Positions 5,314 through 51,383 of a DNA stretch of 64,000 nucleotides are shown piece after piece; positions within the stretch are counted from its first letter, which is position 1; the number at the start of each line of letters is the position of its first letter. Both the position numbers and the translations under genes were made by a program. The notes under the pieces were generated by a model that made no database searches, was not told the DNA's origin, and saw only the letters and a program-made list of their open reading frames with translations. Source of the stretch: Minisyncoccota bacterium (GTDB lineage Bacteria > Patescibacteriota > Minisyncoccia > Phycocordibacterales > UBA918); contig JAWKSQ010000001.1 in assembly GCA_041389045.1 (NCBI GenBank), positions 139,063-203,062 of the forward strand, written 5' to 3'.

Positions 5314-6564
5314 ATGAGATATATTTTATTTAGTTTTATTGCTTTAGCCCTTGTTGGAGGAGGTTTTGTGGCTTGGCACAACACGGAAACATCGACTGTG
5401 GCATACGAACGAGAAACAACAGCCAGTGATTCAAGCACTGTAGTTACAAATAGTGTTCCTGAAGTAACCTCGAGTGCTGAGCCGTCTACTATGGAAGTGA
5501 GAGAAATTGAAATTCAGCCCGGTGATACATTCTCGACTATTATGGAAGAAATTGATGTACCATCCTCAGACCAAACTCTAATCCTGACCGCTGTACAAGA
5601 CGTGTACGACTTCACCAAACTCCAAGCTGGTAAATTGTTGCACGTGGTGTTTGCGCAAGACGCTCTTGCGTCGATTGATTATGATTTGTCTGATGATAAG
5701 AAAATAGTGGTAGAGAACGTGAATGGCGACTTTATCGCAAAAGAAACGGCTATTGAATATGACATCACCGATACAGCGCGTAGTGCTACTATCGAATCGT
5801 CGCTGTTTGTTGATGGTGCAGACGTTGGCTTGTCTGACAAAACACTCATTGAACTGGCTGAAATATTTCAGTGGGATATCGACTTTACCACTGACATTCA
5901 GGTCGGCGATTCATTTACTGTCTTGTATGAAGAACGTAAATCCAAGGATGGCGAAGAAGCTAGCTCAGGAAAAATACTCGCTGCTCAATTCAAAAATCAA
6001 GGCACAACATATGATGCTTATTACTATGAGACATCAGATGAAACGTCTGGCTATTATTCTGCCAGGGGCGAAAGTGTTGAGCGACAATTCTTAAGTTCAC
6101 CAATTAGTGTCGGGTACATCAGCTCTGGCTTTAGCTATAGTCGGGTGAATCCAGTTACTAAACAAGTTACACCACATCGAGCGCTTGATTATGCCGCTCC
6201 GCAGGGCACACCAATCGTCGCCATTGCTGACGGAGCAGTCTCGGTTGCCGGAAGTAAAGGTGGGCTTGGTATCACTGTTGAGATTGAACATGGTCAATAT
6301 CTCAGTCAGTATGCTCACCTTTCAAAGATAGCAACAGGCGTAAAACGAGGGGCCACAGTATCTCAAGGTGACATTATTGGCTATGTTGGTTCAACTGGTA
6401 TTTCAACTGGCCCGCACTTACAGTACGCTTTCTTTAAAGATGGTACACCGATTAATCCATTAACCGCTGAATTGCCTGTTGGTGAAGCGCTCGATGAATC
6501 AGTCATGAATGACTTTTTTGCGGTTCGCGACCGCCTTATCGAACAACTAGAACCCCTTAATTAA
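5314..6564 (+). CDS. M23 family peptidoglycan metalloendopeptidase
   Basis: HRALDYAAP, HGQYLSQYAHLS and GSTGISTGPHLQY (the HxxxD/HxH LytM signature). N-terminal TM segment. Confidence 0.85.
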   Translation: MRYILFSFIALALVGGGFVAWHNTETSTVAYERETTASDSSTVVTNSVPEVTSSAEPSTMEVREIEIQPGDTFSTIMEEIDVPSSDQTLILTAVQDVYDFTKLQAGKLLHVVFAQDALASIDYDLSDDKKIVVENVNGDFIAKETAIEYDITDTARSATIESSLFVDGADVGLSDKTLIELAEIFQWDIDFTTDIQVGDSFTVLYEERKSKDGEEASSGKILAAQFKNQGTTYDAYYYETSDETSGYYSARGESVERQFLSSPISVGYISSGFSYSRVNPVTKQVTPHRALDYAAPQGTPIVAIADGAVSVAGSKGGLGITVEIEHGQYLSQYAHLSKIATGVKRGATVSQGDIIGYVGSTGISTGPHLQYAFFKDGTPINPLTAELPVGEALDESVMNDFFAVRDRLIEQLEPLN

Positions 6565-11246: not shown

Positions 11247-11275
11247 TTGACTAAGAGACCCCCTGGGGGTATCAT
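11247..11275 (+). promoter_or_regulatory. sigma70-like promoter with a G/C-tract palindromic operator in the spacer
   Basis: TTGACT (11247-11252), 17-nt spacer, TATCAT (11270-11275). The palindrome ACCCCCTGGGGGT (11258-11270) fills the spacer, 6 nt upstream of the csoR-family gene start. Confidence 0.6.
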
Positions 11276-11281
11276 TGAAAT

Positions 11282-11554
11282 ATGAAACAGGACATTAAGA
11301 AAAAAGTCATCAAAAGACTTAAAATCATTGAAGGTCAGGTTCGTGGGTTACAAAAAATGGTTGAGAAAGAGAAGTATTGTGTTGATGTTATTACCCAGTC
11401 CTCTGCTGTTCGTCATTCTCTAGGATCAGTTGAAGATTTAATGATGGAAAATCATCTTTCAACTCACGTGATTGAACAGATGAGGAAGGGGCAACATAAA
11501 AAAGCTACTCAAGAAATTTTATCGGTATATAAATTAGCTAAGTTTAATAAATAG
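11282..11554 (+). CDS. CsoR/RcnR-family metal-sensing repressor
   Basis: RLKIIEGQVRGLQKMV, then Cys (YCVDV) and NHLSTH. Ligand fingerprint is x-C-H-H. Confidence 0.8.
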   Translation: MKQDIKKKVIKRLKIIEGQVRGLQKMVEKEKYCVDVITQSSAVRHSLGSVEDLMMENHLSTHVIEQMRKGQHKKATQEILSVYKLAKFNK

Positions 11555-11556
11555 CT

Positions 11557-13554
11557 ATGAAACACTCACATGATTGTCATAGTCACGGAAGTCCTGGAAT
11601 GGGTCACGGCTCAGCTGGTACTTTTTTAAAGCGGTTTTGGATCGTTACCTTTCTGCTCATTCCGTTAGTCTTTGCTAACGAAATGATAATGGAGGCTATC
11701 GGTTTGGACTCATTCATTCTGAGCAAGTGGATCGGTTTTGGTATAGCTACAATTATTTTTGGTTTCTCGCTTATCTTTTTCCAGCATGCGTGGCATGAAA
11801 TAAAAGCCAGGGCGTATGGCATGATGACGTTGGTTTCAATCGCGGTTGCCTCAGGATATCTCTTTTCGGTAGCTGCTACATTTATTCCGAGTCTCGAAGC
11901 AGATTTCTACTTGGAAATTTCAACTTTGATTTGGGTGCTTCTCTTTGGGCATTACCTTGAAGCAAAGTCTGGAGCAGCAGCTGGTGATGCCCTTGCTGAA
12001 GTTGCTAAGCTTTTACCAAAACAGGCACACAAACTGGTTGACGGACAAGAAGTTGACGTAAACATTGCAGAGTTGGTTAAAGGCGATATTGTTTTAGTGA
12101 AACCAGGTGAGAAGATTCCAGCTGATGGTTTGATACAAGAAGGTTCTGCCAATATAGACGAAGCCCTGATTAGCGGTGAATCAAAGCCAGTTGAAAAAAC
12201 CGTCGGTGCGGAAGTAGTCGCTGGTGCTATCTGTCTTGATGGCTCACTCACCATTACACTTACCCGAGTTGGTGAACACTCTACCATTGGACAAATTCAA
12301 ACCTTAATCGCCCAGGCCCAACAGACCAAACCAAACTCGCAACGAATTGCCGACAAAGCAGCTGCCGTACTTACATTTGTGGCTGGTATTACTGCGCTGT
12401 TAACTATTTTGGTTTGGACATTCTTGCTAGGCGAGACGTTTGTGTTTGCGGTTACTCTCGCTATTACGGTATTGGTAATTGCTTGTCCGCACGCACTGGG
12501 TTTGGCTATTCCAACTGTGACCACCATCACGACATCACTAGCAGTGAAAAATGGTTTCTTCATCAAGAACCTAGCGAAGATTGAGGTCATTCGGAAAGCT
12601 GACTACGTGGTTTTTGATAAGACTGGCACGCTTACAACTGGTCAGTTTGGGGTGACTGATATTGTTGCGACCAGCAGTCTTTCTAAGGAAGACATTTTAC
12701 ACATTGCCGCTTCGCTTGAACAACATTCTTCACATATTATCGGTGAGTCTATTGTGAAGCATGCTAAAGATTCTAAAGTCGCACTCTCTAATATTTCAGC
12801 CTTTAAGAATGTAGCTGGGAAAGGTATCACTGCCGAACTTGATGGAAAAAGGTATGTGGTTGGTAATAAGGCCCTCATGTCTGAGATGAACATCAATCTT
12901 GATGGTGCTGAAGCCGAATATAAAACTCTGTCTAAGAAAGGCAAAACGACCATCTTGATAGCTGACGGAACTAAGGTGCTTGGTCTAGTCGCTCTGTCTG
13001 ATGCCATCAAACCAGAGTCATTTGAAGCAGTTAACCGGTTGCATGTAATGGGTGTGAAAGTAGCGATGTTAACGGGAGACAATATCCAAGTAGCTAAAAG
13101 TGTAGCCGAAGAACTTGGTATTGATACCTACTTTGCCGAAGTGTTGCCAGAAGATAAATACGAACACATTAAGGAATTGCAAAATGATGGCTCAATTGTA
13201 TTGATGGTTGGCGACGGTGTAAATGATGCACCTGCACTGACCCAAGCAAATGCGGGAATTGCCATTGGTGCAGGAACTGATGTGGCAGTTGAAGCGGGTG
13301 ATGTGGTACTGACTCGCAACAATCCCGAAGACATTGTTCGACTGATTACATTAGCCAAGAAAGTGTATAGCAAAATGATCCAAAATCTTGTGTGGGCGCT
13401 GGGGTATAACGTTGTCGCTATTCCAGCTGCTGCTGGCGTGTTTGCGTACTGGGGCTTCTTCTTACGGCCTGAAATCGGGGCGTTTGTGATGAGTTTATCA
13501 ACGGTGATTGTAGTAGCCAATGCCATGCTCCTCAAACGAATAGATTTAGGTTAA
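11557..13554 (+). CDS. copB: P1B-3 type copper ATPase (CopB-like, CPH motif)
   Basis: His-rich N-terminus (HSHDCHSHGSPGMGHG), TM6 ACPHALGLAIP, DKTGTLT, GDGVNDAPAL, YN in TM7 and MSLST in TM8. Confidence 0.85.
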   Translation: MKHSHDCHSHGSPGMGHGSAGTFLKRFWIVTFLLIPLVFANEMIMEAIGLDSFILSKWIGFGIATIIFGFSLIFFQHAWHEIKARAYGMMTLVSIAVASGYLFSVAATFIPSLEADFYLEISTLIWVLLFGHYLEAKSGAAAGDALAEVAKLLPKQAHKLVDGQEVDVNIAELVKGDIVLVKPGEKIPADGLIQEGSANIDEALISGESKPVEKTVGAEVVAGAICLDGSLTITLTRVGEHSTIGQIQTLIAQAQQTKPNSQRIADKAAAVLTFVAGITALLTILVWTFLLGETFVFAVTLAITVLVIACPHALGLAIPTVTTITTSLAVKNGFFIKNLAKIEVIRKADYVVFDKTGTLTTGQFGVTDIVATSSLSKEDILHIAASLEQHSSHIIGESIVKHAKDSKVALSNISAFKNVAGKGITAELDGKRYVVGNKALMSEMNINLDGAEAEYKTLSKKGKTTILIADGTKVLGLVALSDAIKPESFEAVNRLHVMGVKVAMLTGDNIQVAKSVAEELGIDTYFAEVLPEDKYEHIKELQNDGSIVLMVGDGVNDAPALTQANAGIAIGAGTDVAVEAGDVVLTRNNPEDIVRLITLAKKVYSKMIQNLVWALGYNVVAIPAAAGVFAYWGFFLRPEIGAFVMSLSTVIVVANAMLLKRIDLG

Positions 13555-47425: not shown

Positions 47426-48667
47426 ATGCCATTTAAACATACTATTTTCACTGCTATCCAAGCTCTGCAAGGACATAAGTCCCGGTCGGTTTTAACTATC
47501 CTAGGTATCGTTATTGGGGTGGCCGCAATTATTCTGGTGATGTCGATTGGAAAAGGAGTTGAAGCTTTGATACTTAATGAGGTGAGTGGGTTGGGTCCAG
47601 AAACAGTAGTGCTTAGGCCAGGCGGTAATTTGACGGATATTACGCAAACCCTATATTCACAGTCAATCACGACGGCCGATATTGAAGCTTTAAAGAAGAA
47701 ACAGAACGTCCCTAACTTGATTGAAGTAGCACCTTTCGTTATTTCTTATGAACCACTTGAATATCAAGGTAGTTTATATCGACCTTCTATCTTTGGCGCA
47801 CCGGCTGATTTTATAGTTAATTTGTTTGACCTAACTTTGACTGAGGGTCATATCTATACTGACGATGACATTGATCAAGAAGCCAGGGTAGCTGTCATCG
47901 GGTCTGAGATTCGGGAAGAGGTCTTTGGTAGTTCTCGAGCTGTTGGTAAGCAGATAAAAATCAAAGATAAAAAGTTTAAGGTTGTCGGAGTGTTAGAGGA
48001 TAGGGGTAATGTTGGTGGTTTTAATATAGACACACTTGTTCTGATTCCTTATACCTCAGTCCAGACGTACATTACTGGTACGGATTATTTTGCTGAGGTG
48101 ATGATCCGGGCGGATTCTCCGGCGAATGTCGACAAATTGGCTTACGATGTGTGGGCGACCCTGAGGGATACTCACGATTTGAGTCTGCATGAAGAGGATG
48201 ATTTTAATATCACTACTCAAGAAGAGACGATTGAATCCATTGAAACTATCGTCGACATTTTCACTTGGTTTTTGATTGCCATGGTCGCTATCTCTTTGGT
48301 GGTTGGGGGAGTCGGTATCATGAATATTATGTTGGTGTCGGTATCGGAACGGACTAAAGAGATTGGTCTGAGAAAGGCACTGGGTGCCACGAATAGGGAC
48401 ATTCTGAGTCAGTTTCTATCTGAGGCTGTGATACTGACTAGTTTGGGAGGAGTGCTGGGTATTGTGATTGGCACTAGTGTTTCGTTTTTAATATCGGTTA
48501 TCTTAATCAATACCGTTGAAGCTACTAGTAATTGGGAATTTATTTTCCCAATCTCAGGTTCAATACTCGGAGTCGGTGTGTCAGCCACGGTCGGTCTTAT
48601 CTTTGGTATTTATCCCGCCAACCAAGCTGCTAAGAAAAGTCCTATCGAAGCCCTGCGGTATGAGTAA
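47426..48667 (+). CDS. ABC transporter permease, MacB-like (periplasmic domain + FtsX domain)
   Basis: TM1, then a large extracytoplasmic domain, then a three-TM FtsX-type C-terminus (ERTKEIGLRKALGA). Confidence 0.85.
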   Translation: MPFKHTIFTAIQALQGHKSRSVLTILGIVIGVAAIILVMSIGKGVEALILNEVSGLGPETVVLRPGGNLTDITQTLYSQSITTADIEALKKKQNVPNLIEVAPFVISYEPLEYQGSLYRPSIFGAPADFIVNLFDLTLTEGHIYTDDDIDQEARVAVIGSEIREEVFGSSRAVGKQIKIKDKKFKVVGVLEDRGNVGGFNIDTLVLIPYTSVQTYITGTDYFAEVMIRADSPANVDKLAYDVWATLRDTHDLSLHEEDDFNITTQEETIESIETIVDIFTWFLIAMVAISLVVGGVGIMNIMLVSVSERTKEIGLRKALGATNRDILSQFLSEAVILTSLGGVLGIVIGTSVSFLISVILINTVEATSNWEFIFPISGSILGVGVSATVGLIFGIYPANQAAKKSPIEALRYE

Positions 48668-48786
48668 CCCGTCTAAGTTTCATTAGTTATTGATGTTCGG
48701 TTGCAAGATATTTTAAATCACTTTTATACATATCCGACAAGGAAAAGATTTTTTATTTGAGTGCTCATCGGTCGTTAGTTTGGTGC

Positions 48787-48815
48787 TTGCAGGTTATACC
48801 CCCTGGGGGTATAAT
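48787..48815 (+). promoter_or_regulatory. orphan promoter-like module with the same G/C-tract palindrome as the csoR-copB promoter
   Basis: TTGCAG (48787-48792), 17-nt spacer, TATAAT (48810-48815). 19-bp perfect palindrome TATACCCCCTGGGGGTATA at 48795-48813. Confidence 0.5.
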
Positions 48816-49209
48816 GATGTGGTTAAAGCATCGATCGTAGGATTTATTTCGATTAGGTCAACGGACTTTTTGTTAGCAAATTCGTCCCATAAAAATATCA
48901 CATCACATTTCTGTTCTTTGTCGTTGGTCCATTCCGGTGGGACTAGGGAACATATTTTTGTATGTTAAGACTGTCTCGTAAGAGTACCTTGATGTTTAAC
49001 TTAAACGTATCTTTTATAACTTTCTCAATTTCTTCAGTTAATTTCTTCGTGTCTGTCTTCTTTGTTTCAAAGATTATATTGCCAGAATTGATGTAGGTGA
49101 TGACATTGTTATAGCCCAGTGACTCAAAGCATACTTTGAGTTTAGTCATCTCTACCTTGTTATTCCCTCCAACATTAATTCCTCGAAGCAGGGCGACATA
49201 CTTTTTCAT
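48794..49209 (-). pseudogene. DUF1697 domain protein, frameshifted and truncated
   Basis: MKKYVALLRGINVGGNNKVEM.. (ORF 48943-49209) continues in another frame as ..SLVPPEWTNDKEQKCDVIFLWDEFANKK.. and stops at 48794-48796, short of the usual family length. Confidence 0.6.
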
Positions 49210-49470
49210 CGTAAAAATATTATAACAAGTTTTAATTTCTCTATAGAGTAGCTATAAAAAACTAATGTAGCACTGCTTCAAAATGATCGGTACCAGGGTA
49301 ATCTTTCGCTACACGAACGGTACAGTTTTCACACCTTACTTCGCCAAAGGCTCGTTTCGGCATGTTCAAACTCTTCGATTCTCGACGCTAGTGACGTAGG
49401 TCACTAGCTGTAGCCTAGTCATAAAAAAGAAACCTCTCCCGAAAAGGGGAGAAGCTTCGTTTTCCTGATG

Positions 49471-49543
49471 GGCGATCACAGGGAATCGAACCCTGATTAC
49501 CGGTACCACAAACCGGAGTATTAGCCGTTATACGATGATCGCC
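49471..49543 (-). tRNA. tRNA-His (anticodon GTG) with encoded G-1
   Basis: GGCGATCA../..TGATCGCC acceptor including the G-1:C73 pair, anticodon stem CCGGT/ACCGG with loop TTGTGGT, T arm CAGGG-TTCGATT-CCCTG. Confidence 0.8.
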
Positions 49544-49795
49544 ATGATGTTTTGTAGGTGCACGGCGGACCAAAGTCCGCCGTGCACCACTACAATGCGC
49601 ATAGTTATACCTATTTTTGGACAAAAAGTCGAGAGCGAGGTTTGCTCGCTTTGCGGGCTAGTGTTAAACTCAATTATTATATGGACCAAGAAGGACTAAT
49701 GGTCACGCTATTTTTTACCTTTATGCTCTCGGCCGGGGTGGGTTTTTATTTAGCTCGGTTTATTTTTTAAGGTGGTAAGTTAAATACTGGTCTTG

Positions 49796-50938
49796 ATGTT
49801 AAAAATAACTTTTATAAAAAAACTTTACCTACTAGCTGTTTTGGTCGGTGCCTTTTTTGTCTCAACACAAGCTACTCTGGCTCAAGAAGTTCATCAGGAA
49901 TTTCAAGAAATAGTAAAAGCCAAAGTGATAGAGGTGGTGAGTGAAAGTGAGCGGGATATTATGGGAACCGGGGCCAAGACCACTGTTCAGGAGTTACGTA
50001 TTTTATTATTGGATGGCGAAAAGGCTGGGGAAGTGATTCGGTTTGAAAATGATCTCGTGATTTTAGAAAAAGATGACGAAATATTCGTTAATCGTTTGCA
50101 GTCTATCGATGGGACGGAGTTTTATTCGTTTAAGGATGTTGAGCGCCGTCCACCACTGGTTTTTTTGGTTCTTATTTTTGCCGGCTTAGTAGTTTGGTTA
50201 TCAGGCAAGCAGGGTCTGAGGGCATTGCTAAGTCTAAGTCTCAGTATCGGGGCCGTTATTTTTCTTTTAATACCCGCCTTACTTAAGGGTTATTCACCCG
50301 CGCTAGCTAGTTTGGTGATATCGGGACTAATTTTGTCTGTGACTTTGTTTCTTACTCATGGCTTTAAACCTCGAGTTGTCGTTACCTTTCTGGGGACTTT
50401 TAGTGCGGTGTTTATCACTTGTGCGATTGCTTATATTTGGGTGGAGTGGATGCGGTTTACGGGTTTTGGTGATGACGCTTCGGTTTATCTTAATTTTGCT
50501 ACGGGTGGAACGATTGATTTGGCGGGACTTCTACTTGGCGGAATCATCATCGGGTTACTGGGAGTTCTCGATGATGTTTCTATCACTCAAGCTTCGGTGG
50601 TGCAGGAGCTAAAGGGAGCTGACCCAGAGCTTGGTTTTAGAGAATTGTATGAAAAAGCTCTTAGAGTTGGGCGCGACCATGTTGGGTCGCTTGTGAACAC
50701 CTTGGCTTTAGCATACGTCGGGGCATCACTGCCAATGTTATTACTCTTCTCTTACTCGGCGTCGCCGATAATTGATTTAGTTAATCAGGAAATCATTGCC
50801 GCAGAAATCGTGCGAATTATAGTCGGTAGCATTGGACTAGTTTTGGCCGTGCCAATCACGACCGCTCTAGCGGCCTGGTATTTTAAAGATAAGAAAGTTG
50901 ACACTCATGAAGATTGTGGCCATAGTCACGTCCACTAA
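49796..50938 (+). CDS. YibE/F family membrane protein
   Basis: Signal/TM, an extracytoplasmic domain, then a multi-TM region with GVLDDVSITQASVV. His-rich C-terminus. Confidence 0.7.
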   Translation: MLKITFIKKLYLLAVLVGAFFVSTQATLAQEVHQEFQEIVKAKVIEVVSESERDIMGTGAKTTVQELRILLLDGEKAGEVIRFENDLVILEKDDEIFVNRLQSIDGTEFYSFKDVERRPPLVFLVLIFAGLVVWLSGKQGLRALLSLSLSIGAVIFLLIPALLKGYSPALASLVISGLILSVTLFLTHGFKPRVVVTFLGTFSAVFITCAIAYIWVEWMRFTGFGDDASVYLNFATGGTIDLAGLLLGGIIIGLLGVLDDVSITQASVVQELKGADPELGFRELYEKALRVGRDHVGSLVNTLALAYVGASLPMLLLFSYSASPIIDLVNQEIIAAEIVRIIVGSIGLVLAVPITTALAAWYFKDKKVDTHEDCGHSHVH

Positions 50939-50990
50939 AGTCTTGAGTTATAATTAAATAGACATTACAAATAATCCTATAAAGAGTTTT

Positions 50991-51383
50991 ATGAAAAATT
51001 TCGTTGAAGAGTTCAAAGCCTTTGCCATGAAGGGCAATGTGGTAGATTTGGCGGTAGCGGTGGTTATTGGTGCTGCTTTTGGCAAAATTGTCTCATCTTT
51101 GGTTGAGAACATTGTGATGCCACTAATTGGATTATTACTAGGCGGAGTTAACTTCACTACTTGGGCGTACCAGATTGGTGAAGGGGACGAGGCGGTTGTA
51201 GTAGCTTATGGTTTGTTTATCCAAAACGTCTTTGACTTCTTAGTGATTGCTTTTGCTGTCTTTATGGCTATTAAGTTGATGAGTCGATTACAAAAGAAGG
51301 AAGAAGAAGCGCCAGCCGCACCTAAGGCTCCGGCGGAGGACATTGTGCTACTTCGTGAGATTCGCGATAGCTTGAAGCGATAG
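50991..51383 (+). CDS. mscL: large-conductance mechanosensitive channel
   Basis: [40 protein letters not shown]. Confidence 0.9.

Follow-up and report, generated by a model that had tools for sequence, protein, structure and literature searches.

We conclude from the comparative evidence below that the short module at positions 48787-48815 of the window (the whole stretch of 64,000 nucleotides analysed here) is probably a genuine CsoR-controlled promoter left without its gene by a recent rearrangement, the same event having truncated a DUF1697 gene at the junction. The module joins a perfect operator to a canonically arranged promoter, no gene follows it on its own strand, and synteny with related genomes ends on either side of it. 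If this reading is true, the site offers a snapshot of the regulatory debris that accumulates while a reduced CPR genome is still losing genes, and in which a still-perfect repressor site and its promoter have been fused, at the start point, to a freshly broken gene.

A type-2 CsoR operator built into a plus-strand promoter

The operator TATACCCCCTGGGGGTATA (48795-48813) is a perfect 9-1-9 palindrome, extendable to 10-1-10 over 48794-48814. It is set within a promoter of sigma-70 type, between a -35-like hexamer, TTGCAG (48787-48792, plus strand), and a perfect -10 hexamer, TATAAT (48810-48815, plus strand), which lies 17 nt further downstream and overlaps the right arm of the operator; palindrome, hexamers and 17-nt spacer are all as the initial annotation described them. 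The predicted transcription start on the plus strand would lie 7 nt after the -10 box, at 48822-48823, and this position coincides with the homology breakpoint described below. The orphan promoter was missing from the output of a generic promoter scan, because TTGCAG, which keeps the TTG, matches TTGACA at only three of six positions; the -35 variants TTGCAT and TTGCTA are present at bona fide csoR/cop promoters of CPR bacteria (loci L064 and L111). When the module is read on the minus strand, TATAAC is found beyond the palindrome and the -35 position is occupied by CACATC, i.e. there is no -35 box; the promoter is therefore directed to the plus strand, and a minus-strand promoter is ruled out by this direct reading.

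In Streptomyces lividans, the type-2 operators of CsoR are G-tract pseudopalindromes with the 21-nt consensus ATATACCCCTNAGGGGTATAT, the inverted repeat TAC-X9-GTA is needed for binding of the repressor, and there are three sites, at csoR, copZA1 and copZA2 (PMC3902906). The orphan module fits this rule exactly over 48797-48811, as TAC (48797-48799)-CCCCTGGGG-GTA (48809-48811). It thus shares with the S. lividans operators a G/C-tract pseudopalindrome of about 19-21 bp, TAC/GTA dyads that are 9 bp apart and an overlap with the core promoter, the hexamers being in canonical register. It differs from them in having no regulated gene downstream, in being predicted here from sequence, and in belonging to a genome whose CsoR carries the fingerprint x-C-H-H and the motif RLKI. 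The sequence rule, the presence of a CsoR repressor in the same genome and the recurrence of the palindrome upstream of copper genes together identify the module as a type-2 CsoR operator.

This recurrence is extensive. A scan for the exact 19-mer, with one genome taken per species, gave matches in at least 120 species, including Actinomycetota, Clostridia and many Patescibacteria, and the identical 19-mer stands upstream of cop genes in Streptomyces, Mycobacterium, Clostridia and Patescibacteria. Loci were called by tblastn with the window CsoR, the window ATPase and a CopZ sequence, and downstream proteins were assigned via Pfam; the genes counted were csoR, Cu-ATPase, copZ, DUF4396, ArsP_1 permease and Grx-MauE. 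A copper-type gene of this set starts at most 1.5 kb downstream of the palindrome at 100 of the 113 evaluable loci among the matches listed; this identifies the palindrome as a promoter-proximal CsoR operator of wide conservation and rules out a chance sequence. The occurrence of one identical 19-bp CsoR operator from Actinomycetota and Clostridia to Patescibacteria is of somewhat broader value than the orphan site itself, as is the manner in which Patescibacteria build this operator into the promoters of leaderless csoR mRNAs.

Among the matches listed, 23 loci belong to Patescibacteria. In all 22 of those that could be evaluated, the palindrome lies between the -35 and -10 boxes or overlaps them, and the distance from its centre to the start of a gene is 14-75 nt. 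The -10 box begins inside the right arm of the palindrome, and the -35 box is usually TTGACA, with TTGACT, TTGCAT and TTGCTA also seen; at L061 and L064, the register of GGGGG-TATAAT is the same as in the orphan module. The most frequent downstream gene is csoR; the spacing of 17-21 nt between its start codon and the operator centre implies that its mRNA is leaderless, and projected on the orphan site this offset corresponds to 48821-48825.

The distance from the -10 box to the csoR start codon is 6-8 nt in these Patescibacteria, and a TTGACA -35 box usually abuts the palindrome. The pattern is found in the window (11270-11284) and at L033, L041, L047, L050, L069, L071, L079, L083, L105, L116, L120 and L126, so that leaderless csoR mRNAs seem to be the rule in this group.

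The other operator of the window fronts a copper cluster

The other operator copy, GAGACCCCCTGGGGGTATC (11255-11273, plus strand), has an imperfect left arm, with GAC instead of TAC, and is enclosed in the csoR promoter, formed by TTGACT (11247-11252), a 17-nt spacer and TATCAT (11270-11275). The csoR ATG follows 6 nt past the -10 box, as expected of a leaderless gene, and 18 nt from the operator centre. The two sites have in common an exact core, ACCCCCTGGGGGTAT (11258-11272 and 48798-48812); the initial annotation had recognized this core but had given its length as 13 nt, whereas it extends over 15 nt. Through the -10 box the orphan and csoR sites, which are 37 kb apart, agree at 17 of 18 positions, and their register to the -35 and -10 boxes is identical. 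That such a core is unlikely to recur by chance, as had been estimated before, is borne out by dinucleotide-preserving shuffles, none of which (0/100) yielded any match; for a 13-mer with at most two mismatches, 0.41 occurrences are expected in the window. Of the two sites, it is the orphan operator that better matches the consensus, since the autoregulatory site of csoR has GAC for TAC in one arm.

Further copies were sought throughout the 64-kb window with relaxed patterns, half-sites and a mismatch scan, and only these two sites were found; the next-best match to the 19-mer has five mismatches and lies within a gene. The orphan site is consequently the second and not, as the initial annotation counted it, the third copy. 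An origin of the two copies in a duplicated segment was rejected: the flanks are unrelated and the similarity is confined to 15-18 nt. A dispersed repeat or mobile element of the REP or MITE kind was rejected likewise, with only two copies in 64 kb and no homologous flanks. A search for the 21-mer in viral contigs gave no match.

The orphan module thus resembles the csoR-copB promoter in the 15-nt core, the 17-nt spacer, the overlap of right arm and -10 box, and orientation. It differs from it downstream: the csoR-copB promoter is followed after 6 nt by a leaderless ATG, whereas the orphan promoter runs into antisense pseudogene DNA. More than one operator for one repressor is a familiar arrangement, and RicR of M. 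tuberculosis, for instance, controls several unlinked loci. The window shares with such CsoR/RicR regulons the presence of several operators at unlinked loci of one genome; in those regulons, however, each operator has behind it a gene (for a metallothionein, oxidase, chaperone or ATPase), whereas the orphan operator of the window has none.

The gene csoR (11282-11554, plus strand) encodes a repressor of the CsoR/RcnR family (Pfam PF02583, E = 1.3e-24), whose best match among solved structures is Geobacillus CsoR (4m1p) and which is presumed to bind both operators. Directly after it, and co-transcribed with it, is the gene for a P1B ATPase of CopB type (11557-13554, plus strand) with a CPH motif and a His-rich N-terminus, followed by genes for a DUF411 protein and a multicopper-oxidase-like protein. 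The initial annotation had left the metal as copper or nickel; because the neighbouring ATPase is of CopB type (CPH) and stands within a DUF411/multicopper-oxidase cluster, we favour copper as the likely signal and regard nickel as less likely. The window ATPase is 70% identical to the ATPase encoded directly behind a perfect palindrome in Campbellbacteria (L095).

At that Campbellbacteria locus (PCTT01000013.1, palindrome at 5689-5707), copB follows the palindrome directly and there is no csoR between them or nearby, so that the same operator is able to front copB itself in close relatives. The window CsoR is itself atypical. It has Cys33, His58 and His62, whereas canonical Cu(I)-sensing CsoRs have a second Cys at the position of His62; its fingerprint, x-C-H-H, is nearer to the RcnR type, and RLKI replaces the DNA-binding motif RLxR. 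This atypical repressor is nonetheless placed in a CopB/DUF411/multicopper-oxidase cluster, behind a canonical type-2 operator.

Synteny ends on both sides of the module

The last gene of the left synteny block encodes a MacB/FtsX-type ABC permease (47426-48667, plus strand). In FtsX relatives of 93% identity, homology with the window ends at the stop codon (48667), and FtsX is followed by a tRNA and GC-rich repeats. Between this stop codon and the DUF1697 remnant lies the promoter-bearing junction segment of 155 nt (48668-48822), for which no homologue was found in relatives on either the FtsX side or the DUF1697 side. BLAST of the segment against the 120 operator loci and the window returned nothing beyond the palindrome, and JGI metagenomes scanned for TTGCAGNN-palindrome-TATAAT (the pattern TTGCAG-NN-palindrome-TATAAT) gave no match. 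Exact look-ups of window proteins, by which a pre-rearrangement allele or an orthologous promoter was sought, found none; as for the closest YibE_F relatives, L135 starts too near the contig end and L136 is without DUF1697. In the comparison with relatives that the initial annotation had proposed, a homologous operator site was found in none.

The contigs of the 93%-identical relative (L007, 9243-9532; L008, 8586-8776; L009, 1490-1868) all end within 200-380 nt of FtsX, in a tRNA and then GC-rich repeats. These contig ends may reflect an assembly-breaking repeat or a variable region at the position of the window's junction.

On the right, the module abuts the end of a broken minus-strand DUF1697 gene (48823-49209), as had been noticed initially; we find this pseudogene to be both frameshifted and 3'-truncated. 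An N-terminal ORF of 88 aa (48943-49209; PF08002, E = 1e-32) is interrupted by a 1-nt frameshift near 48943-48950, after which a second frame continues. Intact orthologues have about 180 aa, and some 50 C-terminal residues are absent from the remnant; its new tail, TTSLYPQGV*, is encoded by the promoter and palindrome read backwards, the ORF ending at 48794. The closest syntenic orthologue, in Parcubacteria GW2011_GWF2_44_8 (L001), is about 80% identical at the nucleotide level, and this similarity stops abruptly at 48823, 10 nt short of the palindrome. The breakpoint (48822/48823) is thus 7 nt past TATAAT and 18-19 nt from the palindrome centre, i.e. at the location where transcription or the leaderless start codon begins at bona fide promoters. 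The gene order in L001 is RNR-MscL-YibE_F-(tRNA-His)-DUF1697, followed by genes for a 90-aa protein, ASCH and PNPOx, with no palindrome. We considered whether this 90-aa gene downstream of DUF1697 was a csoR whose promoter had been left behind in the window; it is not a CsoR gene and no palindrome is present there.

The palindrome is not made of conserved DUF1697 (PF08002) codons. At its position the intact orthologues read KYIEGAVVW, encoded by unrelated DNA without a palindrome, and a CsoR-like box was found in none of the DUF1697 loci; the possibility raised by the initial annotation, that the palindrome is coding sequence conserved at the protein level in intact orthologues, is hence discounted. 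The synonymous divergence of DUF1697 is saturated and only dN is usable, so that dN/dS could not reveal relaxed selection. The dN between the window DUF1697 and its L001 orthologue (0.126) is not above that between two intact orthologues (0.153), which dates frameshift and truncation as recent in comparison with that divergence. With a pseudogene this young, the perfection of the palindrome does not by itself indicate selection.

Other, independent DUF1697 variants (P0069, encoded at L137 1612-2046, P0059 and P0013) are truncated or diverged at almost the same codon, after NPxVDTL[KY]; the truncation at L137 arises through overlap with a convergent gene. The N-terminal segment of about 125 residues may be a self-sufficient domain, or the truncation point may be fragile. 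A similar palindrome was sought at truncated variants (P0069, L137) and is absent there.

No gene follows the promoter

The statement of the initial annotation that no plus-strand gene follows the module holds. The ORFs behind the promoter are a 7-codon ATG ORF at 48817 and a 49-codon GTG ORF at 48819, within a 62-aa ORF (48780-48968); they have no Pfam match and are antisense to DUF1697. An Rfam search of 48600-49800 at a permissive threshold matched the tRNA-His alone. This tRNA (49470-49542), together with a terminator-like hairpin (49429-49458), forms a minus-strand unit (49429-49542) that is the first obstacle to a plus-strand transcript; read on the plus strand, 49435-49452 forms a terminator-like hairpin. 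Beyond this opposing tRNA, at a distance of about 860-970 nt, come the next supported plus-strand genes, namely a 29-aa ORF (49681-49770), YibE_F (49793-50938) and MscL.

Origin of the orphan promoter and alternative explanations

The initial annotation had offered two options, a metal-responsive antisense or small RNA and the relic of a lost regulated gene. We favour the relic, since synteny ends at the module on both sides and the break falls at the predicted start. A recent deletion or translocation would have joined the promoter, cut approximately at its transcription start, to the 3'-truncated antisense DUF1697 gene, and would have removed the regulated gene; by analogy with relatives, the latter could have been a leaderless csoR paralogue, copZ, a Cu-ATPase gene or a DUF4396 gene. 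Apo-CsoR encoded at 11282-11554 would still occupy the orphan site and block RNA polymerase; copper would release CsoR, and a transcript would then start near 48822, run antisense through the DUF1697 remnant and probably reach no further than the tRNA-His hairpin near 49435-49460. Neither such a transcript nor any titration of CsoR at the orphan site would be a selected function; both would be by-products.

When genes are lost from reduced genomes, relic or orphan promoters and decoy sites for transcription factors can remain, and they are usually degenerate. The module resembles such relics in that a regulatory element has outlived the deletion of its gene and that pseudogenisation is adjacent; it differs in that its operator still matches the consensus perfectly, which accords with a recent event. 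Several points speak against a promoter that lost its gene. No relative was found with the same promoter and an intact downstream gene, both the lost gene and the arrangement before the break being hypothetical. If the deletion was random, it is a striking coincidence that the break falls within about 2 nt of the predicted start; chance may indeed account for this precision, or the palindrome may have made illegitimate recombination in its vicinity more likely. The better consensus of the orphan compared with the autoregulatory site could hint at maintenance by selection. Lastly, the -35 box (TTGCAG) is weak, and, the source being a MAG, an assembly error could lie behind the frameshift or even behind the junction. 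The module is of use mainly for annotation, as the marker of both a rearrangement junction and a DUF1697 pseudogene and as the predicted source of one spurious antisense transcript inducible by copper. That it is orphaned, with the break at +1, is mildly curious, yet unsurprising for a reduced genome; it is otherwise an ordinary element of known kind.

It is rather unlikely that the module is instead a copper-inducible promoter under selection, whether for a cis-antisense or other non-coding RNA, for a long leader to the operon of the 29-aa ORF, YibE_F and MscL (49681-51383), or for a CsoR decoy, i.e. a high-affinity operator that would tune free CsoR and hence the induction threshold of csoR-copB. 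Such a role would suit the perfect operator and -10 box, superior in match to the site of csoR itself, the plus-strand hairpin at 49435-49452, which could define an RNA of about 630 nt, and the His/Cys-rich C-terminal tail of YibE_F. Against it, the orthologous site is present in no relative, no Rfam family is matched, the plus-strand ORFs are without Pfam match, and the pseudogene is too young for an intact palindrome to be a sign of selection; we therefore see no support for a selected function of the antisense or small RNA suggested initially. As for the leader, its path would run head-on through the tRNA-His and its terminator; in L001 and L136 the YibE_F operon is preserved, as are the sequence upstream of it with the 29-aa ORF and the His-rich tail of the protein, and no CsoR box is present; and none of the 120 palindrome loci among the matches listed has YibE_F within 3 kb. 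A regulatory link from the orphan promoter to YibE_F is therefore unlikely. Quite improbable, too, is the retention by selection of the operator-promoter as a gene-less device, either a copper-inducible ncRNA or antisense promoter or a high-affinity CsoR decoy, the latter of which would sequester CsoR and so sharpen or delay the induction of csoR-copB with its weaker operator. Only as a maintained decoy or ncRNA promoter would the module teach something new about metal regulation.

An assembly artefact would require a chimeric contig in which a fragment of a real CsoR promoter from another place or strain had been linked to the FtsX block and the DUF1697 block, and the frameshift would be a sequencing error. 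This we hold to be very unlikely, even though the Paceibacterota contig was assembled from a metagenome, synteny is lost on either flank within a span of 155 nt, every contig of the 93%-identical relative breaks off just after FtsX, and palindromes and G/C runs are error-prone: the 15 nt shared with the other operator are too short to mislead a k-mer assembler and neither breakpoint lies inside them, the flanks are not inverted copies of each other, which excludes a fold-back chimera, and the left flank bears no relation to the DNA that precedes csoR. The remaining readings, in which there is no operator at all, are effectively excluded. A chance sequence is contradicted by the exact 15-mer match to the csoR operator and by a 19-mer tied to copper genes in at least 100 species. 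Derivation from DUF1697 codons could invoke the reading of the palindrome as ...LYPQGV* at the end of the remnant, where MAFFT aligns Y..G to Y-x-x-G with a 3-residue gap, but DNA homology stops before the palindrome is reached, the orthologue DNA at the aligned codons is unrelated, and no DUF1697 locus contains the palindrome. A bidirectional terminator hairpin would be well placed between the convergent FtsX and DUF1697 genes, and a hairpin of about 10 bp is possible; however, the T-run of an intrinsic (rho-independent) terminator is absent on both strands, the site is unlisted by the terminator scan, and the folding z-score of the region is -0.27.

The tRNA-His and YibE_F region beyond the junction

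A strong GC-rich hairpin, GTGCACGGCGGAC...GTCCGCCGTGCAC (49553-49592), is located between the putative promoter of the tRNA-His and the tRNA itself, and is absent from the corresponding region of L001. Immediately upstream of YibE_F, the 29-aa hydrophobic ORF MDQEGLMVTLFFTFMLSAGVGFYLARFIF (49681-49770, plus strand) has counterparts in L001 (5465-5554) and L136 (4092-4181); because its sequence and position are conserved in these relatives, it probably encodes a genuine small membrane protein and shares a transcript with YibE_F and MscL. In this lineage the YibE_F proteins end in His/Cys-rich tails, HEDCGHSHVH in the window (50890-50938) and HSHSHGADAHDHCDHGHAH in the L001 orthologue (C-terminus of P0246), which suggests a metal-related role for the YibE_F family in these bacteria.
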